From: a virus | Strand: one strand, 5' to 3' | IMG/VR virus record: IMGVR_UViG_3300045988_167206 | Span: 1 to 64,000 of that record | Length of the DNA: 64,000 bases | Shown here: in pieces, positions 4,803 through 41,909 of the stretch | Layout: each line of letters begins with the position of its first letter | Numbering within the stretch: position 1 is the first letter of the stretch | The notes under the pieces: generated by a model | Database searches by the model: none | What the model was told of the DNA's origin: nothing | The model's input: only the letters and a program-made list of their open reading frames with translations | Program-made: the position numbers and the translations under genes

Positions 4803-5782
4803 ATGGAAGATTAGAGCATGAACTTGAAATAAATAATCGTATTGAAAATATGATTTCGGGAATTCCAGAGTCGCAGTTGATAAATGATTTTTATCTGAGT
4901 ATTAAAACATCAAAAACTCCAACTACTTGTTACGATTATATAAAAGTAATACGTAGATTTAAAATGTTTCTAAATAATAAATCTTTTTTAGAAGTGACAG
5001 AAGAAGACGTACAAAGATATCTTGAAGAAAATAATTACAAAACGAATAAAAAAGGAGAAGTAAGAAAAGTCTCTGCACAATATATAAGACAAATCTGCAG
5101 CAGTCTAACTCAATTTTATAATTATTTAGAAAGAAAAAGAATTATTACAGAAAATCCATTGAGATATATTGAAAGACCATCAAGAAGAGATGTAATAGAG
5201 AGGCCAAAAGTAACATTTGATGATCTTGATTGTATTATAGATGCTGCGAAAGAGCAAAATAAATCGTTTAAATGGAGAAGAAAGGATCTTGCAATTCTCT
5301 ATTTACTTATGATAACCGGAATGAGAGAAACTGCATTAACAGAAATTAATGTATCTGATATTGACTGGGAGAATGAAACTCTTACTGTAGTAGATAAACG
5401 TGACAAAGAACAAGTGTATTATTTAAATTACAAACTTAAAAGAGCATTAAATTATTGGCTTCAGAGTAGAAAAGAATTACTTGAAGAAGCGGGTGTCACA
5501 GATATGGATGCGCTTTTCTTTTCTAGAAATTTCCAAAGAATAAGTGCTCAGGAAGTTTATCGAACAGTTAGAAGATGTTCATATAAAGGAATTGGAATTC
5601 GTTTGACTCCTCATCAATTAAGAGCTACATTTGTAACTTTGTATTATGAAAAAACAAAAGATATTGAAGCAACAAGACGGGCTGTTGGTCATGCAAATGT
5701 TGATACAACCGCTTTATATATCAAGAAAAATAATAAGGCAAGAAAAGATGCTATGGATTTCATGAGTGCCGGAATTATGTGA
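4799..5782 (+). CDS. Tyrosine recombinase / integrase (XerC/D-like)
   Basis: Catalytic signature TGMRETAL (Arg I), HQLRATF (H-x-x-R), GHANVDTTALYI (His..Tyr). N-terminal SAM-like core-binding region. ATGA overlap with the upstream gene. Confidence 0.85.
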   Translation: MNGRLEHELEINNRIENMISGIPESQLINDFYLSIKTSKTPTTCYDYIKVIRRFKMFLNNKSFLEVTEEDVQRYLEENNYKTNKKGEVRKVSAQYIRQICSSLTQFYNYLERKRIITENPLRYIERPSRRDVIERPKVTFDDLDCIIDAAKEQNKSFKWRRKDLAILYLLMITGMRETALTEINVSDIDWENETLTVVDKRDKEQVYYLNYKLKRALNYWLQSRKELLEEAGVTDMDALFFSRNFQRISAQEVYRTVRRCSYKGIGIRLTPHQLRATFVTLYYEKTKDIEATRRAVGHANVDTTALYIKKNNKARKDAMDFMSAGIM

Positions 5783-5800
5783 ATAATGTAAAATATGAAA
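5782..5800 (+). promoter_or_regulatory. Recurrent 19-nt intergenic element, copy 1
   Basis: aataatgtaaaatatgaaa, directly after the recombinase stop. Confidence 0.7.
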
Positions 5801-5871
5801 TATATTAAAATACAACTGGACATTTCTTATAAATTTTTGTATAATCAAAGATAGAGAGGTGAAATGACAAT

Positions 5872-7146
5872 ATGTTAATCAATAGGGATATACTTGAAAA
5901 TAAATTACATGAAAAATTTTGGAAGGTAGCTGTTGACACAGAATTCCAACAAAAGATGTTTGATTATGCAAAAAATGAATTTAATATGTCAGAAGAAGTA
6001 TTTTCGGATTTTGTAGCAGACAGAAAAGCATTACAAGAAGCAACGGAATATATGCTTTTTGTAATGCTAAAAAGCTATGAATATGTTAAAGAAACAAAAA
6101 CTTCTGCAATATCTGTTTATTTTAGTCAAAAGGAAATAGACACTTATAGTTTTTCAAAATTCGATAATGCAGATTTTGAATTTCCTATTGTATTTGAAAT
6201 GCTTCAGATTAATGATGATCAATGGATTGGGAAAATTGATGTAAATACATTAGATAAATTAAGAAAACATCAATTAATTAATTATAATCCAGATACACAG
6301 AGAACTATGCAAAAAGTTATTCGGAAAGGAAATGTAAATTATAAAATAACGGTAAACAAAAAAGCAGTTGCAGAAATCGCGGATAGCTTTGAAGAAGGAA
6401 CATATATCTCTGATGAATTAACTTTGAACATTAGACCTGATGATGAGAAAGCAGATTTTTATTATGATTTTAAAAAACGTATGTTGATTATAAATAATAT
6501 AACTGCGTTTGATATAAACGATGGATATCATAGATATTTAGGAATGTTTAGAGAAAAAATGGTTCATCCGGAATTTAACTACACTATGGAATTGAGAATT
6601 ACAAATTTTGATGTAGATAAATCGCAAAGATTTATTTATCAGAAAGATCAAAAAACAAAAATGGCTAAGGTTGATTCTCGAAGTTATAATGTGTATGATC
6701 CCGCTAATATTGTTATAAAAAAAATTAATGAAAGTGCTTCGTGCAATATCAGAGGATTTATTGGACGTAATGAAGCTAAAATTGATATGGGAACATTAAG
6801 CAGGATCATACATTTATTATATTTTAAAAATGTTCCAAAAGCAGAAGAAAGAAAAACAATTATTGAAGTTACAAAGGAGCTTATTGAAGACTTTAATATA
6901 TTAACTGAACAAAATATAGAATTTTTAGAAAAAACGTATTCTGCTTACGAGTTATTATGTATCATGTCTACATTCCACTATTTTAAAGGGAAAGATAATA
7001 AAGAAGATATTGGTGAGATAGTGAAATATTTAACTGATGCAGCTCAGGGTAATTCTGTTAAATTGAATAATAGAAGTGGTATAACTAGAAAAAAGATGGA
7101 ACAGTTAGAAGAAATTATAGAAAGGAGAAATAAAACATATGTATAA
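5872..7146 (+). CDS. Hypothetical protein with DGQHR-like (DndB/ParB-fold) motif
   Basis: The motif FDINDGYHRYLG resembles the DGQHR signature of DndB-type/ParB-like nuclease-fold domains. 8-nt overlap with the next gene. Confidence 0.35.
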   Translation: MLINRDILENKLHEKFWKVAVDTEFQQKMFDYAKNEFNMSEEVFSDFVADRKALQEATEYMLFVMLKSYEYVKETKTSAISVYFSQKEIDTYSFSKFDNADFEFPIVFEMLQINDDQWIGKIDVNTLDKLRKHQLINYNPDTQRTMQKVIRKGNVNYKITVNKKAVAEIADSFEEGTYISDELTLNIRPDDEKADFYYDFKKRMLIINNITAFDINDGYHRYLGMFREKMVHPEFNYTMELRITNFDVDKSQRFIYQKDQKTKMAKVDSRSYNVYDPANIVIKKINESASCNIRGFIGRNEAKIDMGTLSRIIHLLYFKNVPKAEERKTIIEVTKELIEDFNILTEQNIEFLEKTYSAYELLCIMSTFHYFKGKDNKEDIGEIVKYLTDAAQGNSVKLNNRSGITRKKMEQLEEIIERRNKTYV

Positions 7147-8035
7147 CCAGGAACGTAAACAGCGGTACATTAAATATAAAACAAGTAAAACTTCTGTAAA
7201 TAATTTAAACAGTATTTTTAATGCCGCTGAACATTTTGAAGTACAATCAAATAAAGACTTATGTGATTTTACAACTGATGAAATACGTAGGATGTATAAA
7301 TTGTCTAACATTAATTCAATTGATGTTTTAATAAATCGAAATAGTGTATATAAAAATTACACATCCTGGGCGCAAACAGAAGGACTGGTTATAGATAATC
7401 AAAATCATTACAGTGAATTTGATATTAATATGTTAGATTTATACTTAAATAAAAATGCATTAAAACAGACAATCGTTGATCGAGAAACTATTTTTTCATG
7501 GGCAGAGAGAATTGTAAATCCACGAGACGCTTTTGTATTGGTATGTATTTTTGAGTTTGGCAAAGGCGATTATTTTAATGATATTGTTTTGGCTAGAATG
7601 AAAGATATTGATTTAGAAGAGAAAACAATGAAGCTCACTTCCGGTAGAACCGTTAAAATTAGTGATCAATTAATTTATTTTGCAAAGAAAAGCAATGCAG
7701 CCGATTCTATAATTTCAGCGAATTCTGAACGAATTTTGTATGATGACGGAAGCATCATGAAAAGATATGGAAAAGCAAAAGGTACCGTAGATCCATATTA
7801 TTTAGGCAGGGCAGCTTATGCAGCATTGAAAAGAGCATTAGAATTTTTTGGCGTTAAAATATCAGCGACAAATATCATGTATTCTGGTATTATAGATATG
7901 ATAAAAAGAGAAAGTGAAAAATTATCTATTTCTGGTGAAGAATATTTGAAGAAATATTATTCTGATATTGAGTATCAATACGATGTAAAAATTAAACCAA
8001 CTATATTTATGAAAAAATATGGTGATTATATTTAA
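7139..8035 (+). CDS. Degenerate tyrosine-recombinase-fold protein; candidate MrpR/YopR-like repressor
   Basis: The N-terminus MYNQERKQRYIKYK.. and the layout resemble integrase SAM-like plus catalytic folds. However, the Arg-I position reads FGKGD and no HxxR...Y tail is present. Confidence 0.35.
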   Translation: MYNQERKQRYIKYKTSKTSVNNLNSIFNAAEHFEVQSNKDLCDFTTDEIRRMYKLSNINSIDVLINRNSVYKNYTSWAQTEGLVIDNQNHYSEFDINMLDLYLNKNALKQTIVDRETIFSWAERIVNPRDAFVLVCIFEFGKGDYFNDIVLARMKDIDLEEKTMKLTSGRTVKISDQLIYFAKKSNAADSIISANSERILYDDGSIMKRYGKAKGTVDPYYLGRAAYAALKRALEFFGVKISATNIMYSGIIDMIKRESEKLSISGEEYLKKYYSDIEYQYDVKIKPTIFMKKYGDYI

Positions 8036-8090
8036 TAATCACCATATTTAAAATACAATAAATATAAAATTTAAAAAGGAGATAAGAGAA

Positions 8091-8354
8091 ATGGAACTTT
8101 TAGAGAAAATGATAACCGGGGTTGATGATACAGAATTAATTGTACATATTACTACGCCAATTTGTAGAGCACATATAGAGTGTAATACAATGGATTTAAG
8201 TATAAAGAATGAAACTCTGTGCATTAATCCGGAAGATTTTGAAATGGAGATTGATTTAAATAAATGTAAGATTGAAGAAGGTTTACTGGAAGACATGCCA
8301 ACAATTGAGCTATCAAGAGGTGATACAGTATTGAATATTGACTTTATTCGATAA
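8091..8354 (+). CDS. Hypothetical protein
   Basis: 87-aa ORF after RBS aAAAGGAGAtaagagaa. Confidence 0.45.
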   Translation: MELLEKMITGVDDTELIVHITTPICRAHIECNTMDLSIKNETLCINPEDFEMEIDLNKCKIEEGLLEDMPTIELSRGDTVLNIDFIR

Positions 8355-8371
8355 TAATGTAAAATTTGAAA
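8353..8371 (+). promoter_or_regulatory. Recurrent 19-nt element, copy 2
   Basis: aataatgtaaaatttgaaa, 33 nt before the ligA ATG. Confidence 0.8.
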
Positions 8372-8385
8372 GGAATATAAAATAA

Positions 8386-10392
8386 ATGAAAAAAACGAAT
8401 GAGATGAAAGATCTTATTAAGAGATTAAATGTATATAGAGATGCTTATTATAATAGGTCGGAAAGCTTGATCTCTGATAAAGAATATGATCGAATGTTTG
8501 ATCGATTGATAGAACTGGAAAAAGAGACTGGTATTATTATGAGTAACTCTCCTACACAGAATATAGGATACGAAGTAAAAAGTGAGCTGCCTAAAATAAA
8601 ACATAGTCATTTGATGATGTCTTTGGACAAAACAAAAGATTATCATGAGCTGGTTGAATTTATAAATAATCACGGATGCATTCTGATGAATAAGATGGAC
8701 GGGCTGACTATTGGATTGACATATGAAAATGGTAAATTGATTAAAGCCGAAACTCGTGGAAATGGTGTTATAGGGGAAGATATTACTCATAATGCAAAAG
8801 TATTTGAGAATATTCCTTTGAATATTGAATGTATGCAGCATATGGAGTTTGAAGGTGAGGCTGTTATCACTTATGACGATCTTGAAAAGATTAATGCTAA
8901 AATAAAAGATCCGGATAAAAAATATAAAAATCCAAGAAACCTTGCTTCGGGATCAGCAAGACAGTTTGATAGTAAAATTGCAAAGGAAAGACATCTTAAG
9001 TTTGTTTTATGGAAAGTTCCGGCAGGGATGGAGAATGAAAATAGTTTCCTCGATCGCTTAGAAGACGCAAAGCAATTAGGTTTTGATATTGTCCCATATG
9101 TATATGTAGAAAAAAATACCACGGCAGAGCAGATAGAAAAGGTCATTGAATATTTAAAGGAGAAAGCAGAAGAATTATCATATCCTATTGATGGAATGGT
9201 GATTACTTATGATGATATCAATTATGGTATATCTCTTGGTATTACAGATCGATATCCAAAATATTCTCTTGCATTTAAGTTTAAAGATGATGAGTATGAT
9301 ACTGTTTTAATTGATATTGATTGGACTATTGGTAAAAGCGGGCAGCTTACGCCTACAGCAGTATTTGAGCCGGTTAAAATTGACGGAACGGAAGTTTCCA
9401 GGGCGAGCCTGCATAATGTAAGCATCTTTAAAGATCTGCAGTTACATCAGGGTGATACTGTTACTGTGTATAAGGCAAATCAGATCATCCCACAGATTGC
9501 AGAGAACCTGACTAGAGGATCTGAAGGTGGATATAAGTTTGAGGTTCCAGAAAAATGTAATTATTGTGGTGAACCTGCGGTGATTATTAAGGAAAATGAA
9601 TCAGAAGTGTTAACATGCATAAATGCTCAATGCGAAGGAAAACTTTTAGGAGAGTTATGTGCATTTGTAGGTAAGAAAGCGCATGATATAAAAGGTTTAT
9701 CTGAAGCTACGCTGTCATTAATGGTTCATACTAGAATGGTTAAATCACCAATTGATTTGTTTTCTTTATCAAACGAACGAAAAAAATTATCATATTTTCC
9801 AAGAATGGGAGCTAAGAAGGTAGACAATATCCTTAAGGCAATTGAAGACTGTCGAAATACAACATTAGAGAAATTTATTGTAGGACTGAATATTCCGCTG
9901 ATCGGAAGTCGTGCTGCCAAGGATATTGCAAAGCATGAAGAAATGAGAGCAAGAGAAAACGGAGAGAAATATTCTGTTACTCAGTTTGTTGCAGATGCAA
10001 ATAATAATTACGATTTTACATGTATTGAAGGATTGGGATCAGAACGAAATGATTTTATTCATAGGTATTTTAGAGAAAATGTTAGATATGTAATTGATCT
10101 TGCAGGAGAATTTAAATTTCCTGAAATAAATCTGGAAACAGAAAGTGTTTCAGCTGCAGCATCTTTAGAAGGGAAGAAATTCTGTATTACAGGGAAACTG
10201 CAGAAGTTTGCGAATCGAGATGCTCTTGTGGCCGATATTGAATCAAAGGGAGGTAAAGTTGTATCTGGAGTCACTAAGGCAACAGACTATTTGATTACGA
10301 ATGATAAAACAAGTGGATCAAGTAAAAATAAGAAAGCGGCAGATCTTGGAATACCCGTAATTACAGAAAAAGAGTATCTTGAAATAAAATAA
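8386..10392 (+). CDS. ligA: NAD+-dependent DNA ligase
   Basis: Adenylation motif NKMDG (KxDG), Cys4 zinc finger CNYCG..CINAQC, HhH region, and a C-terminal BRCT-like domain (GKKFCITGKL..GGKV..SVTKATDYL). 668 aa. Confidence 0.95.
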   Translation: MKKTNEMKDLIKRLNVYRDAYYNRSESLISDKEYDRMFDRLIELEKETGIIMSNSPTQNIGYEVKSELPKIKHSHLMMSLDKTKDYHELVEFINNHGCILMNKMDGLTIGLTYENGKLIKAETRGNGVIGEDITHNAKVFENIPLNIECMQHMEFEGEAVITYDDLEKINAKIKDPDKKYKNPRNLASGSARQFDSKIAKERHLKFVLWKVPAGMENENSFLDRLEDAKQLGFDIVPYVYVEKNTTAEQIEKVIEYLKEKAEELSYPIDGMVITYDDINYGISLGITDRYPKYSLAFKFKDDEYDTVLIDIDWTIGKSGQLTPTAVFEPVKIDGTEVSRASLHNVSIFKDLQLHQGDTVTVYKANQIIPQIAENLTRGSEGGYKFEVPEKCNYCGEPAVIIKENESEVLTCINAQCEGKLLGELCAFVGKKAHDIKGLSEATLSLMVHTRMVKSPIDLFSLSNERKKLSYFPRMGAKKVDNILKAIEDCRNTTLEKFIVGLNIPLIGSRAAKDIAKHEEMRARENGEKYSVTQFVADANNNYDFTCIEGLGSERNDFIHRYFRENVRYVIDLAGEFKFPEINLETESVSAAASLEGKKFCITGKLQKFANRDALVADIESKGGKVVSGVTKATDYLITNDKTSGSSKNKKAADLGIPVITEKEYLEIK

Positions 10393-10406
10393 TGTAAAAT
10401 TTAAAA
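10388..10406 (+). promoter_or_regulatory. Recurrent 19-nt element, copy 3
   Basis: aataatgtaaaatttaaaa overlaps the ligA stop, upstream of the sigma-A promoter. Confidence 0.8.
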
Positions 10407-10413
10407 ATATGTA

Positions 10414-10442
10414 TTGACATATAAGGAAATATAATGTATAGT
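10414..10442 (+). promoter_or_regulatory. Sigma-A (sigma-70) type promoter
   Basis: TTGACA-17 nt-TATAGT. Confidence 0.65.
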
Positions 10443-10455: not shown

Positions 10456-10474
10456 AATAATGTAAAAAATGAAA
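10456..10474 (+). promoter_or_regulatory. Recurrent 19-nt element, copy 4
   Basis: aataatgtaaaaaatgaaa lies downstream of the sigma-A promoter, 33 nt before the ATG at 10489. Confidence 0.7.
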
Positions 10475-10488: not shown

Positions 10489-11100
10489 ATGAAATTTTGC
10501 GTTAAATCTAGAAATAATGAATACATAACAATATTATCAGATAGCTCTTTATGGCTAACATCTGATGTGAGTAAAGCATTTTTGTTTAAAAATAAAGAAA
10601 AAGCAAGAAATGTAGCGAGGCATGGTATTTCTAATAAATTCAGAAGACAACATGGTCCATTTTCGATATGTGCTGTTGAAGAAGAACCTGTAGCTATGCT
10701 ACCAGAAGGAAAACCAATACAAGTAGAAAATCAAGTACAGGAAATAGAAGTAGAAGTCCCTGTATTTGCCGAAAATTTCTTTATGGAAATGAAAAATTTA
10801 ATAGATGAAAACAAATCTGATATATCTGATAGATTATCAGAAATTGATCTTGAGTTATCAGATATGTTACATTATATTGAATTTCATAAATTTTCTGCTT
10901 GTGAGGGATATAAATTATGCAAGAAGTTACAAGAAATCTTGGATAGGAGGAGAGTGATAAAAAATGAAATGAAAGTTGTGCAAGAGACAGAGAGGATTTA
11001 TAATCCACTAAGTATTACTGATAAAGTTAAACATCAAATTTATGAACCAAGAGTTCTAAATACATTATTTGATGAAAACAAAGGTAAAATTCGCTCATAA
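10489..11100 (+). CDS. Hypothetical protein
   Basis: 203-aa ORF downstream of a sigma-A-type promoter and a copy of the 19-nt element. Confidence 0.5.
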   Translation: MKFCVKSRNNEYITILSDSSLWLTSDVSKAFLFKNKEKARNVARHGISNKFRRQHGPFSICAVEEEPVAMLPEGKPIQVENQVQEIEVEVPVFAENFFMEMKNLIDENKSDISDRLSEIDLELSDMLHYIEFHKFSACEGYKLCKKLQEILDRRRVIKNEMKVVQETERIYNPLSITDKVKHQIYEPRVLNTLFDENKGKIRS

Positions 11101-11119
11101 AATAATGTAAGATTTAAAA
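11101..11119 (+). promoter_or_regulatory. Recurrent 19-nt element, copy 5
   Basis: aataatgtaagatttaaaa. Confidence 0.75.
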
Positions 11120-11147: not shown

Positions 11148-13220
11148 ATGAGATTTGAAGAATTCAACAAAAAGCTGCAGAAACATTTTTCTGAAATGGT
11201 AAAAGGATCAGAGAGATTATTTGAAGTAGATTTTGATTATGAGGAGATGAATAATCTTTATCTTAACTCTTTCCCGGCAGGAACAAATGAAGTTTATCGT
11301 AAAAGAAGAGAGTATGATTGTAGTTGCTGCAGACATTTCATTAGAGACATCGGAAATGTCGTAGCCATTAAAAATGGGCAGCTGCATACACTTTGGGAAT
11401 TAAATCTCAATGATGAAGTATTCTCTATAGTAGCTAAAGCTCTTGACGAATATATTCGTGAAAAAGCTGTAAAAGGTGTGTACCTTAGAAAAGAGAAAAG
11501 AATTGGAACACAGTTTAGTAGAGAAATGCTTCCGACTGGTGAGGTTAATCGATACGATCATTACTTTATTGATCTTCCAGAAATTTGTATTTATGAAGAA
11601 AGTTGGAATACTACACTAGACGGAGAAAAAGGAAAGTTCAGAGATACAAGAAATGTGTTTAAACGTTCTCTTGATGAAATTGATTCTGAAGCTGTAGACA
11701 CTGTTCTTGAACTGATCAGCCAGAATTCATTGTATAAAGGTGCCGAATGGAAAGCGGTTTTACAGGAATTTAAAAAGTACCAGAAGGAATATAATAAACT
11801 TTCTCCAGAAGAAAAAGAACTTTGGACCTGGGAAAAATCGATTAGTGCCGGTATGTCAGTAGGCCGTATTAGAAATCATAGCATGGGAACATTACTTGTT
11901 AATCTTTCTGAAGGAATGGAGCTTGATACAGCAGTAAAGAAATATGAGCAGATTGTAGCCCCGGCAAATTATAAGAGACCGAAAGCAATCTTTACAAAGA
12001 AAATGCTTGAAGATGCAAAGAAAACTATTACAGAGCTTGGTTATATGGATGCTCTTCAGAGAAGATTTGCTACTCTTGATGACATCACAGTAAATAATAT
12101 CTTATTCTCAAATAAAGATGCTGCAAAGAGAATTACGGGTGCAGATGATCTGTTTGGAGAGATGGAAAAAGATGTTGCGATTAATCCTAAGAAATTCTCC
12201 AAGGTAGAAGAAATCAGTGTAAGAGATTTCATTAACAATGTTCTCCCTACAGCAAAAGAGCTTGAAGTATTCTTTGAGAATAAGCATGAGAAAAACATGG
12301 TATCACTTATTGCTCCGGAAAACAAAGAAGCAAAGACGATGTTCAAATGGAACAATCCATTTTCTTGGGCTTATACAGGAAATATTACAGATTCTGATAT
12401 TAAAGAAAATGTAAAGGCTGCTGGTGGATCTGTAACTGGTGTACTTAGATTTTCTATTCAGTGGAATGATGGAGGAAAAGATAATTCAGATCTTGATGCT
12501 CATTGCATTGAGCCAAATGGAACAGAAATTTATTATGCAACATTTAAAAAGCCACTAATGACTAATATGGGTGGCCAGCTTGATATTGATATAATGGAAC
12601 CGTTCGCACAGTGTGCGAATTCAAATGGAGTTGCGGTCGAAAATATCACATATGCTACAAAATCAAAAATGAAACCTGGCAGATATAAATTCTTTGTAAA
12701 TCAGTTTTGTTCAAGAGGATCAAAAGGATTTAAAGCTGAAGTTGAAGTAGATGGTGAAATTCACTCTTATGAATATGATCAGCCGGTACGAGGAGATGTT
12801 CATGTTGCTGAGGTAATTATGGATGATGATGGAAACTTTAAAGTTATTGATAGACTTAATGGAAATAGTGTAATGACAAGCAAAGAGGTTTGGAATGTTA
12901 AAACAAACCAGTTTATGCCGGTATCTGTTGTATGCTATTCTCCAAACTATTGGGACGAGCAGAAGGGAATTGGACATCAGCATTTGTTCTTTATGCTTAA
13001 AGATTGTGTGAATCCGGAAGAGCCAAATGGATACTACAATGAATTCCTTAAACCGGAACTTGAGCAGCACAAAAGAGTATTCGAAGCACTTGGTGCAAAG
13101 GCACATGTAAAAGATGTAGATGATCAGCTTTCTGGCATTGGATTTAGTCTAACTAAGAGAAATGATCTGATTGTTAAAGTCAAAGGTGCAACTGAAAGGG
13201 TATTGAAGATTAAATTTTAA
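11148..13220 (+). CDS. Large hypothetical protein (690 aa) with N-terminal Cys cluster and DUF2135-like C-terminal beta-sandwich
   Basis: RBS aAAAGGAGAtaaaagaa. N-terminal CSCCRH cluster. The C-terminal segment LRFSIQWNDGG.DNSDLDAHCIEPNGTEIYY....GGQLDIDI..PGRYKFFVNQF resembles the YfaP/DUF2135 pattern. Confidence 0.5.
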   Translation: MRFEEFNKKLQKHFSEMVKGSERLFEVDFDYEEMNNLYLNSFPAGTNEVYRKRREYDCSCCRHFIRDIGNVVAIKNGQLHTLWELNLNDEVFSIVAKALDEYIREKAVKGVYLRKEKRIGTQFSREMLPTGEVNRYDHYFIDLPEICIYEESWNTTLDGEKGKFRDTRNVFKRSLDEIDSEAVDTVLELISQNSLYKGAEWKAVLQEFKKYQKEYNKLSPEEKELWTWEKSISAGMSVGRIRNHSMGTLLVNLSEGMELDTAVKKYEQIVAPANYKRPKAIFTKKMLEDAKKTITELGYMDALQRRFATLDDITVNNILFSNKDAAKRITGADDLFGEMEKDVAINPKKFSKVEEISVRDFINNVLPTAKELEVFFENKHEKNMVSLIAPENKEAKTMFKWNNPFSWAYTGNITDSDIKENVKAAGGSVTGVLRFSIQWNDGGKDNSDLDAHCIEPNGTEIYYATFKKPLMTNMGGQLDIDIMEPFAQCANSNGVAVENITYATKSKMKPGRYKFFVNQFCSRGSKGFKAEVEVDGEIHSYEYDQPVRGDVHVAEVIMDDDGNFKVIDRLNGNSVMTSKEVWNVKTNQFMPVSVVCYSPNYWDEQKGIGHQHLFFMLKDCVNPEEPNGYYNEFLKPELEQHKRVFEALGAKAHVKDVDDQLSGIGFSLTKRNDLIVKVKGATERVLKIKF

Positions 13221-13262
13221 TCTTTAATAATAAATAATGATTTAATCAAAAGGAGTAGAAAA

Positions 13263-18608: not shown

Positions 18609-19121
18609 ATGTTACTTAAAGATGTTTTAGATTATTTTATGTTATATGAAAACTATAAAGATAAGGAAAAGGAAGAAAAAGAGATGCTTACTATTAAGGA
18701 TTTAAAAGTTGGAGATAAACTTAAGGTTAAAGGCGATAATATTATTTTAATTATTCGGTATATTGATCTGGAGAATAGATATATCCTTGTAAGTTTTGGA
18801 AGTGGAGAACCATATCTTATTCGAGATACCACATTAAGATTTTATGAAAAATACAAGGAATGTAAGAAATTAGAATGGACCGAGTGGAAAAAAGGAGTTA
18901 CTGTATATACAAATCCATTTAATGAAATGAAGGTAGGTCTTAATTATGAAATTAGGAATAATGGAAAGCGTGTGCAGGTTCGATCTGGATCTACAAAGGC
19001 TTTTGCGTCCTGTGATGAAACTAAGGGAGATAAATTTGATTATAAATTCGGAAAAAATCTTGCATTAAATAGGCTTATTATTAAGAGAATTGCTGAAGGA
19101 TTGGAATCTTCTGTAAAATAA
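18609..19121 (+). CDS. Hypothetical protein
   Basis: ATG at 18609 after RBS tAGGAAGGAtggaataatt. Confidence 0.5.
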   Translation: MLLKDVLDYFMLYENYKDKEKEEKEMLTIKDLKVGDKLKVKGDNIILIIRYIDLENRYILVSFGSGEPYLIRDTTLRFYEKYKECKKLEWTEWKKGVTVYTNPFNEMKVGLNYEIRNNGKRVQVRSGSTKAFASCDETKGDKFDYKFGKNLALNRLIIKRIAEGLESSVK

Positions 19122-19139
19122 ATAATGCAAAATTTGAAA
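19121..19139 (+). promoter_or_regulatory. Recurrent 19-nt element, copy 6
   Basis: aataatgcaaaatttgaaa, upstream of the sigma-A promoter. Confidence 0.75.
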
Positions 19140-19147
19140 AAATAACT

Positions 19148-19176
19148 GTTGACAAATTGATATACATGTGATATAA
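19148..19176 (+). promoter_or_regulatory. Sigma-A type promoter (consensus, extended -10)
   Basis: TTGACA-17 nt (ending TGA)-TATAAT. Confidence 0.8.
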
Positions 19177-19218
19177 TACATACATAGTCACAGAGGGAAA
19201 GAAATTTTTTTAGAAATA

Positions 19219-19237
19219 AATAATGTAAAATTTGAAA
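19219..19237 (+). promoter_or_regulatory. Recurrent 19-nt element, copy 7
   Basis: aataatgtaaaatttgaaa lies downstream of the sigma-A promoter, 38 nt before the ATG at 19257. Confidence 0.8.
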
Positions 19238-19256: not shown

Positions 19257-19901
19257 ATGACTACTGAGAGAATGACAATTCATAAAGCATTATCTGAATC
19301 AAAGATCCTTGATAGTAGAATTGATGGTGCGATTTATGAAGGAATTTATTGTTTAGCAAATAAACATTCCAATAATAAAATCAAAGGTGTTGGAATTGAA
19401 GATTATAAAAAAGTAATGCAGGGACATTACGATAAAGCAACCGATCTTATTGCAAGAAATAATGCGATCAAGAAAGCAGTAGTTCTTTCTAATGCAGTTA
19501 CAAAAGTAAAGATCGGTGACGTTGAATATACTGTTGCGGAAGCAATCTGGATGAAGAATCATGGAATTGAGCATAAAGAAGAGTTACTTGCAAAATTGAA
19601 GCAGCAGTATTCAAAAGCTCAGGTAGATATTGAGAAAAATAATGGAAAAGAGCTTGATGAACGAGCTGAGAAATATGCGATTGGGCTGTATGGTGGTACA
19701 AAGGATGTAAAAGTAGATCCGGAGGACATCGAGAAAACAAAGAAAGAATTCATCAAAGCAAACCAGTATGAACTTCTTGATCCGATTGGAATTCTTGCTA
19801 AGATCGAAGGCCTTGAAAAAGAAATTGATTCATTTAAGTCAGAAGTTGATTCGATCCTTTCTACAAGTAATGCTATTACAGAAATTGAAATTTCTTATTA
19901 A
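19257..19901 (+). CDS. Hypothetical protein (214 aa), probably highly expressed
   Basis: Preceded by a perfect TTGACA-N17-TATAAT promoter, a copy of the 19-nt element and a strong RBS AAAAGGAGAAAG. Confidence 0.55.
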   Translation: MTTERMTIHKALSESKILDSRIDGAIYEGIYCLANKHSNNKIKGVGIEDYKKVMQGHYDKATDLIARNNAIKKAVVLSNAVTKVKIGDVEYTVAEAIWMKNHGIEHKEELLAKLKQQYSKAQVDIEKNNGKELDERAEKYAIGLYGGTKDVKVDPEDIEKTKKEFIKANQYELLDPIGILAKIEGLEKEIDSFKSEVDSILSTSNAITEIEISY

Positions 19902-19907: not shown

Positions 19908-19926
19908 AATAATGTAAGATTTAAAA
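19908..19926 (+). promoter_or_regulatory. Recurrent 19-nt element, copy 8
   Basis: aataatgtaagatttaaaa, at the start of the 430-nt non-coding gap. Confidence 0.75.
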
Positions 19927-20145
19927 ATATATAAATAATATATTCACTGTTTGTCGAAAACTTTAAACTACAATTCATTAGACTTTTATAGGTATAGACT
20001 AATGTAAAAAAATAAAGAAACCTATATTCTAAAATCAAAAAATGGATTGGTTTGGTTTGATAGACATACTAATAATTTGAAAATGATTATTGTATTAAAT
20101 TCTAAAATATACAGATGATGATGTTTGCATAGAACATTAATAGGA

Positions 20146-20431: not shown

Positions 20432-21535
20432 ATGAAAATAATTAATTCAGGTAGTAGATATGAAATTTATGGAGATGATCTTAAAACACTTGATAAACTT
20501 CCAGCGCAGTTTTATTCTGTTGAATTTCATAAAATGATGGGATTCTTTCTTGATAAACATGCTGATATAGAAATTAAGGAAAGTAAAATCTATGGCGTAC
20601 ATATGAGCAAGGTTAAAAAAGTATTAAGAGCATTTCCTGAATTCGAAAGAAATCTTGGCGTGATTTTATCAGGTAATAAGGGAATTGGGAAATCATTATT
20701 CGCAAAAGAACTTGCGATTGAGTCTGTTAAAGTTGGATATCCAGTAATCATTGTTGATAGATATATTCCTGGTATTGCTGATTTTATTGAAAGTATTGAA
20801 CAGGAAGTAGTGATTTTATTCGATGAATTTGATAAAACATTTGGAGGAGTTAAAAAAGGAGACGGGATGATTGATCCACAAGATGAGATGCTTACATTGT
20901 TTGATGGTATTTCATGTGGAAAGAAAATGTTTGTGATTACATGTAATCGGATTAATAGTCTAAATGATTATCTTGTTAATCGACCAGGAAGATTCCATTA
21001 TCATTTTAGATTTGAATATCCTACTCCGGATGAAATTACAGAATATCTGAAAGATAAAATTGATGAAAAATATTATGAAGAGATTAGGGGAGTTATCGCA
21101 TTTTCACGAAAAGTCAATTTAAATTATGATTGTTTACGTGCGATTGCTTATGAACTAAATAATGGCGAGCCATTTAAAAATGCCATCAAGGATCTGAATA
21201 TTATTAATATGGATGATGTCAGATATGATGCTACAATTGTCATGGATGATGGTTCTACAGATATTGACTCTAGATGTATGGATTTGTTTGATAAAAATAA
21301 TGAGATTAGTTTAGATTTTATAGTACATAATGTATATTTTGAAGCAAACTTTAAAGTTTCAGCTTGTAAATTTGATATGGAAAAATGTATCAATATTGTA
21401 AATGGTGAGGATATTAAATTGAATATTGACAAGCATGACTTGGAAGAATTTAAGAAAAAAGGAAAAGAATTTCCAAAACCGAAATACATTACATTAACAC
21501 GTAAGGTTGATAAAAAACTGCATTATACTTTATAA
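20432..21535 (+). CDS. AAA+ ATPase (classical clade)
   Basis: Walker A GNKGIGKS, Walker B VILFDEFD, second region of homology NRPGRFHYHF. The start was moved to ATG 20432 (RBS AAAAGGAGAAAAG) because the track start overlaps tRNA-Gln. Confidence 0.75.
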   Translation: MKIINSGSRYEIYGDDLKTLDKLPAQFYSVEFHKMMGFFLDKHADIEIKESKIYGVHMSKVKKVLRAFPEFERNLGVILSGNKGIGKSLFAKELAIESVKVGYPVIIVDRYIPGIADFIESIEQEVVILFDEFDKTFGGVKKGDGMIDPQDEMLTLFDGISCGKKMFVITCNRINSLNDYLVNRPGRFHYHFRFEYPTPDEITEYLKDKIDEKYYEEIRGVIAFSRKVNLNYDCLRAIAYELNNGEPFKNAIKDLNIINMDDVRYDATIVMDDGSTDIDSRCMDLFDKNNEISLDFIVHNVYFEANFKVSACKFDMEKCINIVNGEDIKLNIDKHDLEEFKKKGKEFPKPKYITLTRKVDKKLHYTL

Positions 21536-21538
21536 TTA

Positions 21539-21557
21539 AATAATGTAAAATTTGACA
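21539..21557 (+). promoter_or_regulatory. Recurrent 19-nt element, copy 9
   Basis: aataatgtaaaatttgaca, 45 nt before tRNA-Leu. Confidence 0.75.
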
Positions 21558-25582: not shown

Positions 25583-25601
25583 AATAATGTAAAATTTGAA
25601 A
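25583..25601 (+). promoter_or_regulatory. Recurrent 19-nt element, copy 10
   Basis: aataatgtaaaatttgaaa. Confidence 0.8.
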
Positions 25602-36915: not shown

Positions 36916-36918
36916 TTA

Positions 36919-36937
36919 AATAATGTAAAATTTGAAA
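36919..36937 (+). promoter_or_regulatory. Recurrent 19-nt element, copy 11
   Basis: aataatgtaaaatttgaaa, upstream of the sigma-A promoter. Confidence 0.8.
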
Positions 36938-36945
36938 ATTACATG

Positions 36946-36974
36946 TTGACATATGAAGCAAAGCATGATATGAT
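36946..36974 (+). promoter_or_regulatory. Sigma-A type promoter (extended -10)
   Basis: TTGACA-17 nt (ending TGA)-TATGAT. Confidence 0.7.
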
Positions 36975-36990
36975 ACTAACCGTAGCAAGC

Positions 36991-37009
36991 AATAATGTAA
37001 AGTTTAAAA
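36991..37009 (+). promoter_or_regulatory. Recurrent 19-nt element, copy 12
   Basis: aataatgtaaagtttaaaa lies downstream of the sigma-A promoter, 34 nt before the ATG at 37025. Confidence 0.75.
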
Positions 37010-37024
37010 AGGAGTAAAGAAGAT

Positions 37025-37795
37025 ATGAAAGTTTATTTAACAGAAATGCATTCGATCAGAGATGCAATCAGAACAATGTATATGAGTAAACGAAGTTGGA
37101 CACCTGAATTTGAAATCAAACTCAAAGAAACAGTAAATCATTGTACAAACAGAGATGGTAGGCCATATGTAAATCTAGATCTTAACAATGATGATCCAGT
37201 TAAAGTTGAATTTGAAGATATGGTTAATAAACTTTTTAAATGGGGCAAGCAGCATATAACAATGCTTCGGTTCTTAGATGTATCCGTTGTGGTAGAAGGA
37301 CTTCACAGAGGAGCTACAGATGACCTTGATGCTCATGCTAAGAGAATGGATAATCGTATTATTCGAAGCAGTACAAGACTTGCGAATTATCAGTCTTCAG
37401 AAATGTCTGATTGGTATAAAGGAAAAATTATTCCTACTGATATGGCATTAAAAATCTTACTCATGGATCTTCCGGAAGAAATTGAATATGAAGGAAATAC
37501 ATATGTAAGAGCCGAGAATGGATATATTCTTAAAGGGCAGGAAAACAACAAAGATGTAAAACGTGGATTATATATGCTTTCTCTTCCAATGAATTTTACT
37601 TTTAAAATTAATATTGTAGAATTTGCTCATGTTTACATTGAAAGAGGTAAAAGTAAAAAGAACGGCGGCCTTGCACATGGTACAGCGGCTCCAGAACTTC
37701 AAGATATGATTGAAAATCTTGTTGACCAGATCCATGAGTGGTATCCTCAGATCGATAGAGAATTCCTTCTGGAGGTAGAAAATAACAATGTATGA
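37025..37795 (+). CDS. ThyX-fold protein (divergent flavin-dependent thymidylate synthase homologue)
   Basis: HITMLRFLDVSVVVEGLHRGATDDLDAHAKR...IIRSSTR aligns with the ThyX core H.S.LEH.SF.F.I.G.SR....QL.RHR..S..Q.S.RY. The RHR triplet reads AHA. Confidence 0.55.
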   Translation: MKVYLTEMHSIRDAIRTMYMSKRSWTPEFEIKLKETVNHCTNRDGRPYVNLDLNNDDPVKVEFEDMVNKLFKWGKQHITMLRFLDVSVVVEGLHRGATDDLDAHAKRMDNRIIRSSTRLANYQSSEMSDWYKGKIIPTDMALKILLMDLPEEIEYEGNTYVRAENGYILKGQENNKDVKRGLYMLSLPMNFTFKINIVEFAHVYIERGKSKKNGGLAHGTAAPELQDMIENLVDQIHEWYPQIDREFLLEVENNNV

Positions 37796-38006
37796 TAATA
37801 TTTATTATTGTAGAAACGCTAATAACACATGTGAAAAAAGAGACACTTGCTTAAGATATCTTAATGCAGCAGATAATCCAACAGCTACATTATTTAAATG
37901 TGCATGCACATCAAATAATCAATATTTATTATACATTAATAAATCAAAAGAAACGGAGAGTGAAGATGGAAAAGAATCCGGAGATGACACAGAATCAACA
38001 GAATAA
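37788..38006 (+). CDS. Small Cys-rich hypothetical protein
   Basis: 72-aa ORF with an ATGTATGA overlap with the upstream gene. Its 3' end overlaps the kinase start by about 40 nt. Confidence 0.35.
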   Translation: MYDNIYYCRNANNTCEKRDTCLRYLNAADNPTATLFKCACTSNNQYLLYINKSKETESEDGKESGDDTESTE

Positions 38007-38565
38007 TCTTCCTGTAAAGTTTCTTGTTGTTGGCAGAACTGCTTCTGGAAAATCTTCAATTGTAAGAGAAGTATGTAAGAAACTTGAATTAAAACAGGTA
38101 AAAAGTCTAACAACAAGACCGCCACGAGATGTAGAGCTGAATAATCCTGATTCTGATCATTACTTTGTTACAGACGAAGAATTTGAATCTGAAAGAGACA
38201 AAGGATTTGTAGCTTACACTGAAATAAATGATTATAAATATGCTACAACGGTTGATGAGTTTGATAGATCAGATATTTATGTTATCGACCCAAAAGGTAT
38301 AGAATATCTTAAACAAACATGTGGTGATAAATATAAATTTGTCGAGATTTATATTCGAGTTCCATTTATAACTGCGATAAATAGATTTATTGAACGTGGT
38401 GGTATAGAGAGTGAATTTAAGGCAAGATTCAATCAGGAAAATTTACAATTTAAAGAATATGAAAAGAAACAAGGATTTGATTATCACGTATTAAATGATC
38501 AGGCATTAGAAGATGCGGTTGAAAAAGTATGCGAGATAATCAAAAAAAATAATTTGATAATGTAA
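37966..38565 (+). CDS. Guanylate-kinase-like nucleoside monophosphate kinase
   Basis: P-loop GRTASGKSS plus the guanylate-kinase hallmark TTRPPR..D..HYFV..EEF. The start was moved to ATG 37966 (RBS aaACGGAGAGtgaag). Confidence 0.7.
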   Translation: MEKNPEMTQNQQNNLPVKFLVVGRTASGKSSIVREVCKKLELKQVKSLTTRPPRDVELNNPDSDHYFVTDEEFESERDKGFVAYTEINDYKYATTVDEFDRSDIYVIDPKGIEYLKQTCGDKYKFVEIYIRVPFITAINRFIERGGIESEFKARFNQENLQFKEYEKKQGFDYHVLNDQALEDAVEKVCEIIKKNNLIM

Positions 38566-38574
38566 AATTTGGCA
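38556..38574 (+). promoter_or_regulatory. Recurrent 19-nt element, copy 13 (overlaps the kinase stop codon)
   Basis: gataatgtaaaatttggca. The TAA inside the element is the stop of the upstream gene. Confidence 0.65.
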
Positions 38575-38590
38575 GAATGGTGAAGAAAAA

Positions 38591-40861: not shown

Positions 40862-40873
40862 TTTTTTTGAATT

Positions 40874-40892
40874 AATAATGTAAAATTTAAAA
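40874..40892 (+). promoter_or_regulatory. Recurrent 19-nt element, copy 14
   Basis: aataatgtaaaatttaaaa followed by tagcataaaggagaaaac. Confidence 0.8.
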
Positions 40893-40914
40893 TAGCATAA
40901 AGGAGAAAACAAAA

Positions 40915-41895
40915 ATGGCAAAAATTACAATGAAATCAACAAAACAGGAAATTATGGATGCTTATGAGGCAGCAAAGAGCAAGATTGAAGAAATTGAGTC
41001 TATTAAAGATGATCCGCTTGCATCTGCAAAAGCAGAAAAGTCAGCAGAAATTATTAAGTCTGCGGATGCGGTTGCAGAAAATGATATCCTAAATCCTGCT
41101 GTTATTGCTCAGTATAACGATCTGAAAGCAGCCATCCAGATGAAAAAAGAGGAACTTCAGAACCTTTATGGTATTGAAGCAAAAGCCAATTCTCTTGTGG
41201 CAATTATTAATGCTCATAAAGACAAAGAGGCTGAATTAAAAGAGAAATTTAAGGCAGAAGAGGCTACTCTTATGGCTGATATGGCAGCTCAGGAAGAGGC
41301 TTTAAATTCCGATATTAAAGAACTTGAGAAGAAAAAAGAGGATCTGATTGCAGCTACTAAAGCAGAACACGATGAACTGAAAAAAGAACTTGATAAACAG
41401 CGTAAACGTGAAGCAGAAGAGTATAATTATGATCTGAAACGTGCTCGTCAGCTTGAAGAAGACAAATGGACTGATGAAAAGAATGCTCGTGAAAAAGAAC
41501 TGACAGAACGTGAGGCAGCTGTAAGAGCAGATGAACAGGAATTAGCTGAAAAGACTGCTTATATTGAAGAACTGGAACAGAAAGTTGAAGAAATTCCTAC
41601 TCTTGTACAGGAAGCTACAGAAGAAGGTGTTAAAAAGGGTAAAGTAGATGCGGATAAATCAAATGCTTTTGAAGTGCGCGCTCTTAAACAGAAGAATGAT
41701 TATGATGTACAGATTCTCGAAGATAAAGTAAATAGACTTGAATTAGAGGTTGATTCTCTTAGAAATGAAAAAGCAGATTTACAGATGAAACTTGATGATG
41801 CTTATGCACAGATGAGAGATCTTGCGGCCGAGACAGTCAAATCTACAGGTGGGGTTAAAATTCTTAACGGACAGAATTCTCAGTTAAGCAAATAA
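40915..41895 (+). CDS. Long coiled-coil protein (326 aa)
   Basis: A/E/K-rich heptad sequence throughout. Preceded by the 19-nt element and strong RBS AAAGGAGAAAAC. Confidence 0.55.
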   Translation: MAKITMKSTKQEIMDAYEAAKSKIEEIESIKDDPLASAKAEKSAEIIKSADAVAENDILNPAVIAQYNDLKAAIQMKKEELQNLYGIEAKANSLVAIINAHKDKEAELKEKFKAEEATLMADMAAQEEALNSDIKELEKKKEDLIAATKAEHDELKKELDKQRKREAEEYNYDLKRARQLEEDKWTDEKNAREKELTEREAAVRADEQELAEKTAYIEELEQKVEEIPTLVQEATEEGVKKGKVDADKSNAFEVRALKQKNDYDVQILEDKVNRLELEVDSLRNEKADLQMKLDDAYAQMRDLAAETVKSTGGVKILNGQNSQLSK

Positions 41896-41909
41896 TGTAA
41901 AATTTAAAA
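41891..41909 (+). promoter_or_regulatory. Recurrent 19-nt element, copy 15
   Basis: aataatgtaaaatttaaaa followed by tagtataaaggagaaaat, a leader nearly identical to copy 14. Confidence 0.8.

Follow-up and report, generated by a model that had tools for sequence, protein, structure and literature searches.

A dispersed 19-bp box in a large SPbeta-like phage as a probable operator of its MrpR-like repressor

Repressor boxes of SPbeta-like phages

MrpR, also called SroF, of the Bacillus subtilis phages SPbeta and phi3T is an inactive integrase-fold repressor. In SPbeta, MrpR binds SPBRE, the SPbeta repeated element (Lazarevic 1999, cited in PMC10516654), at ten promoter regions, according to ChAP-seq, gel shift and reporter assays (PMC10516654). 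In phi3T, one SroF monomer occupies an asymmetric, AT-rich box of 26 bp, of which it reads 24 bp. SroE (YopQ) is described as a second repressor needed for lysogeny, and SPbeta-like phages differ in their specific repressor variants (bioRxiv 10.1101/2025.11.27.690993). In the SPbeta genome we counted 12 boxes, all co-oriented with the downstream gene (12/12). Boxes are embedded in promoters, form a box-promoter-box-RBS array at yonX, or abut the Shine-Dalgarno sequence at yopM and yopV.

We analysed 64,000 nucleotides of viral DNA (the window; positions 1 to 64,000 of IMG/VR record IMGVR_UViG_3300045988_167206). The window, part of a ~170 kb genome, comes from a large SPbeta-like phage and corresponds to its lysogeny and early/replication arm. 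At the DNA level it most closely matches phages of Clostridioides and Clostridium; its host is not a Bacillus. A 19-nt element, AATAATGTAAAATTTRAAA, occurs here in 15 strong copies, all on the + strand (15/15). The element is probably the operator box of the phage master repressor, an MrpR/YopR/SroF homologue encoded at 7139-8035. Sites of this kind have been described before in Bacillus phages; the window provides a new example and the mechanism is not new.

Like SPBRE, the box is repeated, asymmetric, AT-rich, dispersed over the early region and co-oriented with the downstream gene. In both phages, boxes flank sigma-A promoters or abut Shine-Dalgarno sequences, the box-promoter-box pattern occurs, a yopP-yopQ-yopR-type trio is encoded and the repressor's own operon has a box. 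The sequences differ (AATAATGTAAAATTTRAAA in the window, ACAAATACAAAWAATATGTATATAAT for SPBRE), with only short AT-rich cores in common, as does density (15 copies in 36 kb compared with ~12 in 134 kb). Several SPbeta boxes make up the promoter spacer and -10 hexamer, whereas those of the window lie beside promoters. Unlike in SPbeta, about half of the copies occupy promoter-less gaps within operons, and a general scan of window ORFs recognised no arbitrium genes. Phi3TRE is also long, non-palindromic and AT-rich with A-tracts, and forms a lineage-specific pair with its repressor. However, its conserved block is 24-26 nt rather than 19 nt, and again only short AT-rich cores are shared. Phi3TRE is read by one monomer (structure 9rd5), as is proposed for the window box.

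Number and placement of the boxes

With up to 3 mismatches allowed, all 15 copies of the preliminary description were recovered at their listed coordinates, together with one weak site at 8058; the - strand had none. Dinucleotide-preserving shuffles gave a mean of 1.1 matches (maximum 4). Position-weight-matrix scores were sharply bimodal; the 15 copies scored 21.5-28.2 bits and the best non-family site in the window, on either strand, 8.1 bits. The repeat as described is confirmed. Conservation sets in and is lost sharply at the edges of the 19-nt block. As described previously, the minus-strand lysis/tail arm is free of copies; both searches found none in 42-64 kb. The proposed family range of 5782-41909 was too narrow, since contigs 100% identical to the window carry two further + strand copies, ~1.9 and 3.0 kb 5' of its start. 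The boxes, promoters and RNA features are as follows.

5782-5800, + strand: box copy 1; overlaps YopP-like stop codon, ends 16 nt upstream of -35
5817-5845, + strand: sigma-A-like promoter TGGACA-17-TATAAT (11/12); precedes YopQ-like and MrpR-like genes
8017-8047, + strand: strong terminator-like hairpin; spans MrpR-like stop codon, kept in all box classes
8058-8076, + strand: degenerate copy (3 mismatches, 6.5 bits); 14 nt 5' of 87-aa acidic gene
8353-8371, + strand: box copy 2; on 87-aa stop codon, 14 nt 5' of ligase start
10388-10406, + strand: box copy 3; includes ligase stop codon, ends 7 nt 5' of -35 hexamer
10414-10442, + strand: sigma-A-like promoter TTGACA-17-TATAGT; between copies 3 and 4
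10456-10474, + strand: box copy 4; starts 13 nt past -10, ends 14 nt 5' of p203 start
11101-11119, + strand: box copy 5; promoter-less gap 5' of DUF8224/phrog_1735 gene
13235-13252, + strand: perfect copy of class-B box, TAATGATTTAATCAAAAG; precedes 125-aa gene
19121-19139, + strand: box copy 6; ends 9 nt 5' of -35 hexamer
19149-19177, + strand: sigma-A-like promoter TTGACA-17-TATAAT (12/12, with TG); between copies 6 and 7
19219-19237, + strand: box copy 7; in leader, ends 19 nt 5' of start codon at 19257
19908-19926, + strand: box copy 8; ends 16 nt 5' of RAGATH-27 RNA (19943-20026)
21507-21536, + strand: sigma-A-like promoter TTGATA-18-TATAAT (11/12); directly 5' of copy 9
21539-21557, + strand: box copy 9; starts 2 nt past -10, ends 27 nt 5' of tRNA-Leu
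25583-25601, + strand: box copy 10; promoter-less gap 5' of AAA_24 (Sak4-like) gene
36919-36937, + strand: box copy 11; ends 8 nt 5' of -35 hexamer
36946-36974, + strand: sigma-A-like promoter TTGACA-17-TATGAT (11/12, with TG); between copies 11 and 12
36991-37009, + strand: box copy 12; starts 16 nt past -10, ends 15 nt 5' of thymidylate synthase start
38556-38574, + strand: box copy 13; overlaps last codons of upstream gene, precedes ribonucleotide reductase (RNR) large subunit
40874-40892, + strand: box copy 14; promoter-less gap
41891-41909, + strand: box copy 15; upstream stop codon inside box, leader near-identical to that of copy 14

The reported placement also held. Every copy (15/15) lies in a gene gap or overlaps no more of a gene than the stop codon upstream; only 7.2% of the 5.7-42 kb region is gap sequence. 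Ten of the 15 start 33-47 nt 5' of the next start codon or tRNA-Leu and end 14-28 nt 5' of it, several close to a Shine-Dalgarno sequence. Copy 8 starts 35 nt 5' of the RAGATH-27 RNA. The remaining four copies are upstream members that precede sigma-A-like promoters. Some copies lie within apparent polycistronic units. The near-identity of the leaders of copies 14 and 15 through the ribosome-binding site was confirmed, and copy 13 is the most diverged of the family.

When + strand sigma-A-like promoters in 5-45 kb are ranked by match, the top five (at least 11 of 12 positions) are each within 45 nt of a box, and three of them are sandwiched by two boxes each. The gap from an upstream box to the -35 hexamer is 7-16 nt, and that from the -10 hexamer to a downstream box 2-41 nt. 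Copy 9, being 2 nt from the -10 hexamer, covers the expected transcription start. No sigma-A promoter is recognisable in the gaps that contain 7 of the 15 copies. Copy 2 alone has a -35-like hexamer suitably spaced from the box itself (TTGACT, spacer 16); other copies are at background level. The core TGTAAAAT, formerly taken for an extended -10, is not canonical because TG abuts TAAAAT without a spacer base; that reading was off by one.

The repressor region and co-variation with box class

The genes in and near the repressor region are listed here.

4799-5782, + strand: YopP/SroD-like tyrosine recombinase; directly upstream of YopQ-like gene
5872-7146, + strand: YopQ/SroE-like protein, phrog_5732; 28% identical to SPbeta YopQ
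7139-8035, + strand: MrpR/YopR/SroF-like integrase-fold repressor homologue; proposed box reader
8091-8354, + strand: 87-aa acidic protein, pI 4.2; specific to the window's box class
10489-11100, + strand: p203, 203 aa; modelled as small N-terminal domain and coiled-coil hairpin

The 7139-8035 protein matched the Pfam family MrpR_N_CB (E = 2.8e-17). A profile of this protein and its relatives aligned over the full length with the SPbeta YopR/MrpR structures (E = 2e-13), and its best-matching chain was phi3T SroF (9rd5; E = 1.4e-15). Detection takes a profile; a tblastn search of the SPbeta genome at E <= 1e-4 gave no match to the repressor. The gene order, YopP-like, YopQ-like and MrpR-like, mirrors SPbeta yopP-yopQ-yopR.

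At matching positions, relatives have a repeated box of another sequence, for instance before the ligase, p203, DUF8224, 125-aa and RNR genes. These boxes also flank the same promoters and one precedes a tRNA; class-B phages have their own box at the position of copy 13. Between box classes A and B, flanking genes share 87-100% identity. The MrpR-like protein is at least 91% identical inside class C and at least 98% inside class B but 30-41% between classes. Corresponding values are at least 87% and 41-47% for the YopQ-like protein, and at least 91% and 30-37% for p203, in which the N-terminal domain is the class-specific part and the C-terminal coiled coil is kept. Box class does not track the YopP-like or 188-aa proteins, which both vary inside a class; hence, the YopP-like protein is not the specificity determinant. 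In the region aligned with the DNA-reading helix alpha-2 of phi3T SroF, no column is invariant between classes. An intermediate relative, L091, encodes an MrpR-like protein 61% identical to that of the window and has a moderately changed box, TATAATAGTAAAAATTAAA, at orthologous sites. Repressor identity is not a neat predictor of box similarity; class D and class A boxes agree at 14 of 18 positions, and their repressors are only 31-37% identical. A second relative, L049, mixes two box types. In the window, the class-B box at 13235-13252 is the box of another lineage, within a recently exchanged segment.

Weighing the readings

The preliminary description offered three roles, an operator, a promoter and an RNA signal, and chose none. 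We favour the operator, for which homology, SPBRE-like architecture, promoter adjacency and box-repressor co-variation all argue. The 7139-8035 protein is a full-length MrpR/SroF homologue with YopQ- and YopP-like neighbours, the best sigma-A-like promoters adjoin boxes, three of them in the bracketed form of SPbeta yonX. The boxes of relatives differ in sequence and occupy matching positions. Which box class a phage has goes with its MrpR-like, YopQ-like and p203 proteins rather than with neighbouring genes, a pattern drawn from only ~five independent box classes. Neither a sigma factor nor an RNA polymerase gene was recognised in the window, and there is no RNA structure at the element.

The element could instead be a phage-specific middle-gene promoter, read by redirected host RNA polymerase or a phage polymerase, with each lineage's sequence matched to its own specificity factor. 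Promoters of the T7, T3 and SP6 polymerases are likewise contiguous blocks of ~20 nt upstream of genes, co-oriented and different between related phages. The box is one highly conserved, co-oriented 19-nt block ending 14-28 nt 5' of starts; a tRNA and a small RNA are also preceded by copies, and 7 copies have no other promoter nearby. Furthermore, lineage-specific variants co-vary with p203 and the YopQ-like protein, and p203 is the first gene after an early sigma-A-like promoter. However, we found no sigma factor, RNA polymerase domain or YonO homologue in the ~75 ORFs of the window; the rest of the ~170 kb genome could still encode a polymerase. The p203 model has no sigma-like fold, significant structural match or recognisable DNA-binding fold. 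Unlike in the T7/T3/SP6 or SPbeta YonO systems, the boxes bracket host-type promoters; pairs round a strong sigma-A-like promoter, seen three times, are typical of operators and odd for promoters. The box variants of relatives do not keep the -10-like core, and the homologous SPbeta boxes are repressor sites by experiment (PMC10516654). The boxes occupy the early arm rather than the late arm, whereas YonO serves late transcription in SPbeta. We consider such a promoter, including the -35-independent form suggested earlier, unlikely.

It is similarly improbable that the boxes are operators whose reader, either by itself or as the subunit that gives a complex its specificity, is the YopQ/SroE-like protein or p203. 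Co-variation alone cannot name the reader, because the MrpR-like protein tracks box class no more tightly than these two do. SroE is described as a second lysogeny repressor (bioRxiv 10.1101/2025.11.27.690993), and the class-specific portion of p203 is its N-terminal domain. However, the direct reader in SPbeta and phi3T is MrpR/SroF, by ChAP-seq, gel shift and a DNA co-crystal structure. The YopQ-like gene would be co-inherited with its adjacent MrpR-like gene in any case, and p203 lacks a recognisable DNA-binding fold. Least probable is an element that acts in mRNA, as a linear endoribonuclease site or a translational regulator site near the ribosome-binding site. Such a role would suit the use of the coding strand in every copy, the 10 copies close upstream of a start codon or tRNA-Leu, several near Shine-Dalgarno sequences, the proximity of copy 8 to the RAGATH-27 RNA, and copies inside apparent polycistronic units. 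However, tRNA-Leu and the RAGATH-27 RNA are untranslated, and 4 copies lie upstream of promoters. Copy regions are less, not more, structured than shuffled controls (z-scores +0.2 to +1.6) and had no Rfam matches. The experimentally defined homologous system works on DNA.

For the MrpR-like repressor, we infer physical binding and repression at the window boxes. By analogy with phi3T SroF, one monomer would clamp each asymmetric AT-rich box, possibly assisted by the YopQ/SroE-like protein. In the early/replication arm, boxes beside the strong sigma-A-like promoters would keep RNA polymerase from binding or escaping, and repressor on the scattered boxes would keep early genes silent in dormancy. 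Copy 1 precedes the repressor's own promoter; hence, autoregulation is likely. Several points count against the operator reading. Classical promoter occlusion does not account for the 7 of 15 promoter-less copies, and a DNA-binding site would not need to face the direction of transcription every time, as these boxes do. Further points are the limited similarity to SPBRE and Phi3TRE, the equally tight co-variation of the YopQ-like protein and p203, the few independent box classes, the loose fit between box similarity and repressor identity, and the mixed boxes of L049. We suspect that promoter-less copies are extra roadblocks against read-through in the lysogen, which is the weakest step of the proposal.

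The 87-aa acidic protein may be a Sar-like antirepressor (bioRxiv 10.1101/2025.11.27.690993). Sar of phi3T is LexA-controlled, whereas this candidate gene has no LexA box. The L091 site orthologous to the degenerate copy at 8058-8076 is a good match to the L091 box.

Boxes and promoters in the window

Searching the window with the box sequence AATAATGTAAAATTTRAAA, and allowing up to three mismatches, identified 15 copies and a weak site at 8058, each of them on the + strand. In dinucleotide-preserving shuffles, matches averaged 1.1 and never exceeded 4. When both strands were scanned with a weight matrix, the scores were bimodal; 15 sites scored between 21.5 and 28.2 bits and the runner-up scored 8.1 bits. 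These 15 sites are those listed in the preliminary description, and its claims that the repeat exceeds AT-rich background and is exclusive to the + strand were upheld. Alignment of the copies revealed a conserved 19-nt block with sharp edges, flanked by sequence close to background. The box is AT-rich, non-palindromic and contains AAAATTT. It is not self-complementary, because it was found on one strand only.

As previously noted, the copies are tied to gene boundaries. All 15 lie in gene gaps, which make up 7.2% of the 5.7–42 kb interval, or touch only the upstream stop codon. Within this interval, half of the gaps of at least 20 nt (12/24) contain a copy. Between 42 and 57 kb, none of six such gaps does. 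The box starts 33–47 nt ahead of a start codon or tRNA-Leu for ten copies, which bears out the spacing described for most of them. Contigs 100% identical to the window carry two extra + strand copies, approximately 1.9 and 3.0 kb upstream of its start. The family thus spans 15 copies in 36 kb, plus these two.

We then compared the boxes with sigma-70-type promoter matches. The five best + strand matches between 5 and 45 kb (5817, 10414, 19149, 21507 and 36946) each fit at least 11 of 12 positions, and each is within 45 nt of a box. Three of these promoters have a box on each side (10388/10456, 19121/19219 and 36919/36991), with the upstream box ending 7–9 nt ahead of the −35 hexamer. Two further boxes are arranged as follows.

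Single boxes beside promoters
5782, + strand: box ahead of the promoter for the YopQ-like and MrpR-like genes
21539, + strand: box starting 2 nt past a −10 hexamer, with tRNA-Leu downstream

For the remaining seven copies, the −35-like hexamer is not above background, except at 8353. The preliminary description had read an extended −10 element into the internal TGTAAAAT. This does not hold; with no base between TG and TAAAAT, the sequence is not a canonical extended −10. Across the family, 14 of 15 copies have background −35 scores. Hence, we rejected the element as an extended −10 type promoter for host sigma-A.

An MrpR-like repressor locus

The protein encoded at 7139–8035 matches the Pfam domain MrpR_N_CB (E = 2.8e-17). 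Its family profile aligns over (nearly) the full length of the SPbeta YopR/MrpR structures (E = 2e-13) and also matches phi3T SroF (9rd5; E = 1.4e-15). In other contigs, both MrpR_N_CB and MrpR_C_cat are found on the identical protein. The adjacent genes encode a YopP-like protein with a Phage_integrase (tyrosine recombinase) domain (4799–5782) and a protein 28% identical to SPbeta YopQ (5872–7146; E = 1e-15). Hence, the order yopP(sroD)-yopQ(sroE)-yopR(sroF) is kept, with all three genes adjacent on the same strand.

MrpR is the master repressor of SPbeta. In ChAP-seq experiments it was located at ten promoter regions with the SPbeta repeated element (SPBRE); it also shifts SPBRE-bearing DNA in gels and represses two such promoters (PMC10516654). 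Phi3T SroF acts as a monomer; its two domains wrap around an asymmetric AT-rich box of 26 bp (Phi3TRE), of which 24 bp are read (bioRxiv 10.1101/2025.11.27.690993). We extracted twelve full boxes from the SPbeta genome. All twelve are co-oriented with the downstream gene, including minus-strand yonP. The box is embedded in a sigma-A promoter at yonP, yorE, yorZ, yosX and yorM, arranged as box-promoter-box-RBS at yonX, and abuts the Shine-Dalgarno sequence at yopM and yopV. The window's box, SPBRE and Phi3TRE are all long (15–26 bp), asymmetric and AT-rich, with an A-tract. The window and SPbeta also share dispersed boxes, at promoters and intergenic regions, co-oriented with genes. The sequences themselves have in common only AATAAT/TGTA cores (SPBRE) or TAAAATT (reverse complement of Phi3TRE), which is not significant in AT-rich DNA. 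The window differs from the SPBRE/Phi3TRE kind in having denser boxes, many operon-internal copies and one documented foreign box.

Two features adjoin the repressor gene. A perfect hairpin of 12–16 bp crosses its stop codon (8017–8047) and is present in every lineage (also L091, L029, L033 and L052), with z-scores from −4.9 to −6.5. The stem is formed by the codons for the conserved C-terminal YGDY and their complement. The hairpin looks like a terminator ending the lysogeny operon. Directly after the repressor gene, 8091–8354 encodes a strongly acidic 87-aa protein (pI 4.2; 20 Asp+Glu versus 7 Lys+Arg). It is 67% identical in L091, and a homologue is absent from box classes B–D. This protein is a candidate DNA-mimic antirepressor like phi3T Sar. 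A LexA box was not found near its gene. Among SPbeta-like phages, multiple specific repressor variants occur with cognate small antirepressors (bioRxiv 10.1101/2025.11.27.690993).

Box classes in related phages

We examined 60 viral contigs with relatives of the DUF8224 protein (11148–13220). In those that also encode an MrpR homologue, the window's box (class A) is replaced by the contig's own repeated box.

Box types of the relatives
Class B: TAATG[AT]TTTAATCAAAAG
Class C: AAATTTAATTAWACA
Class D: ATACTGTAAAATATAAAC

These boxes occupy the same positions as in the window: before the ligase, p203 (a 203-aa protein, 10489–11100), DUF8224, 125-aa and ribonucleotide reductase genes, before a tRNA, and flanking the same sigma-A-like promoter on either side. 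In every case the box is on the strand of the gene. Another candidate for the class D motif, GATGTATTTAAAAG, was just the flank of the real box. Class-A-like matches in other classes (e.g. L033:2912 and L029:7133) are located in coding sequence and were dismissed as chance. Among the matches listed, exact-pattern scans with the class A box (viral_contigs and genome_contigs) and the class B box (viral_contigs) returned single chance matches only.

Most proteins of class B phages share 87–100% identity with those of the window. Identity is low for the MrpR-like (37%), YopQ-like (50%), YopP-like (at most 43%), p203 (34%) and 188-aa (33%) proteins. Comparing 29–38 loci per protein, the MrpR-like protein, the YopQ-like protein and p203 show conservation inside each box class and divergence from one class to another. 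The YopP-like and 188-aa proteins vary inside a class and were therefore excluded as specificity determinants. The MrpR-like protein follows the box over A, A′, B, C and D, which are few independent classes, and the YopQ-like protein and p203 co-vary too. Class A′ is the Logan contig L091, an intermediate. Its MrpR-like, YopQ-like and p203 proteins are 61%, 63% and 72% identical to the window's, respectively, and its box, TATAATAGTAAAAATTAAA, differs moderately from the window's and is found at orthologous sites. The p203 protein, product of the first gene after a box-flanked promoter, combines an N-terminal domain specific to the class with a C-terminal coiled-coil hairpin that is nearly invariant and contains the motif ISDxLHYIEFxKFSAxEGYK.

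The class D contig L049 mixes TTATTAATAAATTT and ATACTGTAAAATAT (7268, 9885 and 12078 versus 6895, 9943 and 16173). At these positions its sister phage L052, whose repressor is 70% identical, has a single box type. A further group, 'class E' (L062/L087), was left out of the co-variation test because its locus has no MrpR homologue and the DUF8224 marker is widespread in unrelated large phages. L062, a more distant phage with DUF8224, carries its own repeat ACAAAGTACAAAATGAA (7772–7885 and 21305–21366). The repeat is located within the spacer region of sigma-A-like promoters and is preceded by an inverted half-site. Its similarity to the left-hand portion of SPBRE (ACAAATACAAA) may be coincidental.

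The window itself contains one perfect class B box, TAATGATTTAATCAAAAG (13235–13252), ahead of the 125-aa gene. The surrounding 5.3-kb cargo segment (approximately 13.15–18.45 kb) encodes P-type ATPase, vWA-TerF-like, TerD and PspA-like proteins and is 98–100% identical to class B contigs L029 and L066. Judged by this identity, the segment looks like a recent module exchange that imported a non-cognate box. Since the class B box sits within a class-B-identical segment, boxes appear to travel with the surrounding DNA, whereas the resident boxes correspond to the phage's own repressor module. The idea that boxes mark recombination junctions was not supported; identity to L029 climbs gradually and has already attained 99% ahead of the box at 13235.

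Function of the boxes and wider gene content

The most probable interpretation of our data is that the boxes are operators of the MrpR-like repressor. Binding and promoter repression are inferred. That the box is instead a phage-specific promoter, used by an RNA polymerase or sigma factor that the phage encodes, is unlikely, though conceivable for the promoter-less copies. No polymerase or sigma factor domain, and hence no cognate reader, was detected in the window ORFs scanned, and no YonO match was found in the window, which is part of a genome of approximately 170 kb. The predicted fold of p203 (mean pLDDT 77) is a small N-terminal domain and a long coiled-coil hairpin, which is not sigma-like. 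Its model has no significant structural neighbours in the PDB. On this predicted fold, we rejected p203 as a sigma factor. Double-box bracketing of strong host-type promoters is also the layout of operators rather than promoters. An improbable variant of the operator interpretation has the YopQ-like protein or p203, not the MrpR-like protein, reading the box. Both co-vary with box class as the MrpR-like protein does, and co-variation alone cannot separate these readers. SroE (YopQ), the neighbour of SroF, is a second repressor whose mechanism is unknown (bioRxiv 10.1101/2025.11.27.690993). Experimental precedent favours the MrpR-like protein.

An RNA-level signal is the least plausible explanation, and very improbable. 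Some copies precede untranslated RNAs, four copies sit upstream of promoters, and folding energies at the copies are no better than for shuffled sequence; all three argue against it. Rfam families gave no match at the copies. Separately, an Rfam RAGATH-27 RNA (95 bits; gathering threshold 76) lies at 19943–20026, between the box at 19908, 35 nt ahead of it, and tRNA-Gln. This looks like a copy, carried by the phage, of an RNA motif of unknown function.

If the boxes are operators of the MrpR-like repressor, each would hold one repressor monomer. Boxes next to promoters would block polymerase binding or escape, and the box at 5782 would mediate autoregulation. Downstream boxes and the hairpin that follows the repressor gene would jointly shield lytic genes from the lysogeny operon. 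Boxes lacking a promoter would be extra roadblocks, which is the weakest step of this scheme. Beyond promoter occlusion, an asymmetric box bound by a clamp-type repressor monomer might form an orientation-dependent roadblock. We propose this tentatively, because about half of the boxes are promoter-less in operons and all, as in SPbeta, are co-oriented with transcription. Were it true, a chain of roadblocks would keep the entire 40-kb early arm silent by stopping read-through from the lysogeny operon, which is transcribed constitutively. The foreign box at 13235–13252, on its exchanged cargo module, would then naturally form a 'blind spot'. Another possibility is that, after repressor removal, boxes also serve as weak internal lytic promoters.

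The SPBRE/Phi3TRE kind of control is already known; the example is new, the mechanism is not, and to specialists it would come as expected, not as a surprise. As operators, the boxes would extend SPbeta-type immunity (a catalytically dead integrase, a monomer clamp and long asymmetric boxes) beyond Bacillus arbitrium phages, to a large family of low-GC phages (about 100–210 kb) for which metagenomes are the only source. Otherwise near-identical genomes would then provide five or more natural classes of repressor/box specificity. These could be used to derive the recognition code of the repressor fold, to predict cross-immunity between co-resident prophages and to annotate early promoters.

The phage is of a distant uncultured lineage, probably with clostridial hosts. 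A megablast search with 20 kb of the window found no match among GenBank phages, and distant blastn gave short matches only, to large phages of Clostridioides, Clostridium and Bacillus. The window is approximately 32% G+C, with genes on the + strand as far as approximately 57 kb. It encodes NAD-dependent ligase, DnaB-type helicase, DnaE, RecD2-type helicase, ribonucleotide reductase, thymidylate synthase, RNA ligase, three tRNAs, NAD-salvage genes, a tyrosine integrase and a minus-strand lysis and tail-fibre arm. Detectable SPbeta homologues are YorI, YorJ, YorL, NrdE and YopQ. The NAD-salvage cluster (45524–54174) comprises an isochorismatase-family protein, possibly a nicotinamidase, with PRPP synthetase, NAMPT and NAD synthase. 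Adjoining it, 47706–48809 encodes an adenylosuccinate-synthetase-like protein (PurA/PurZ-type; PHROG name '2-aminooxy adenylosuccinate synthetase'). Within 56097–57656, the tyrosine integrase is followed by an ORF of 103 aa whose sole match is DUF3362, a domain from the C-terminus of a radical-SAM protein family; this ORF may be the phage-borne 3′ end of a host attachment-site gene. The same phage also has a gene for a 421-aa RVT_1 reverse transcriptase (L280–L282, 1815–4149), located approximately 7 kb ahead of the start of the window.
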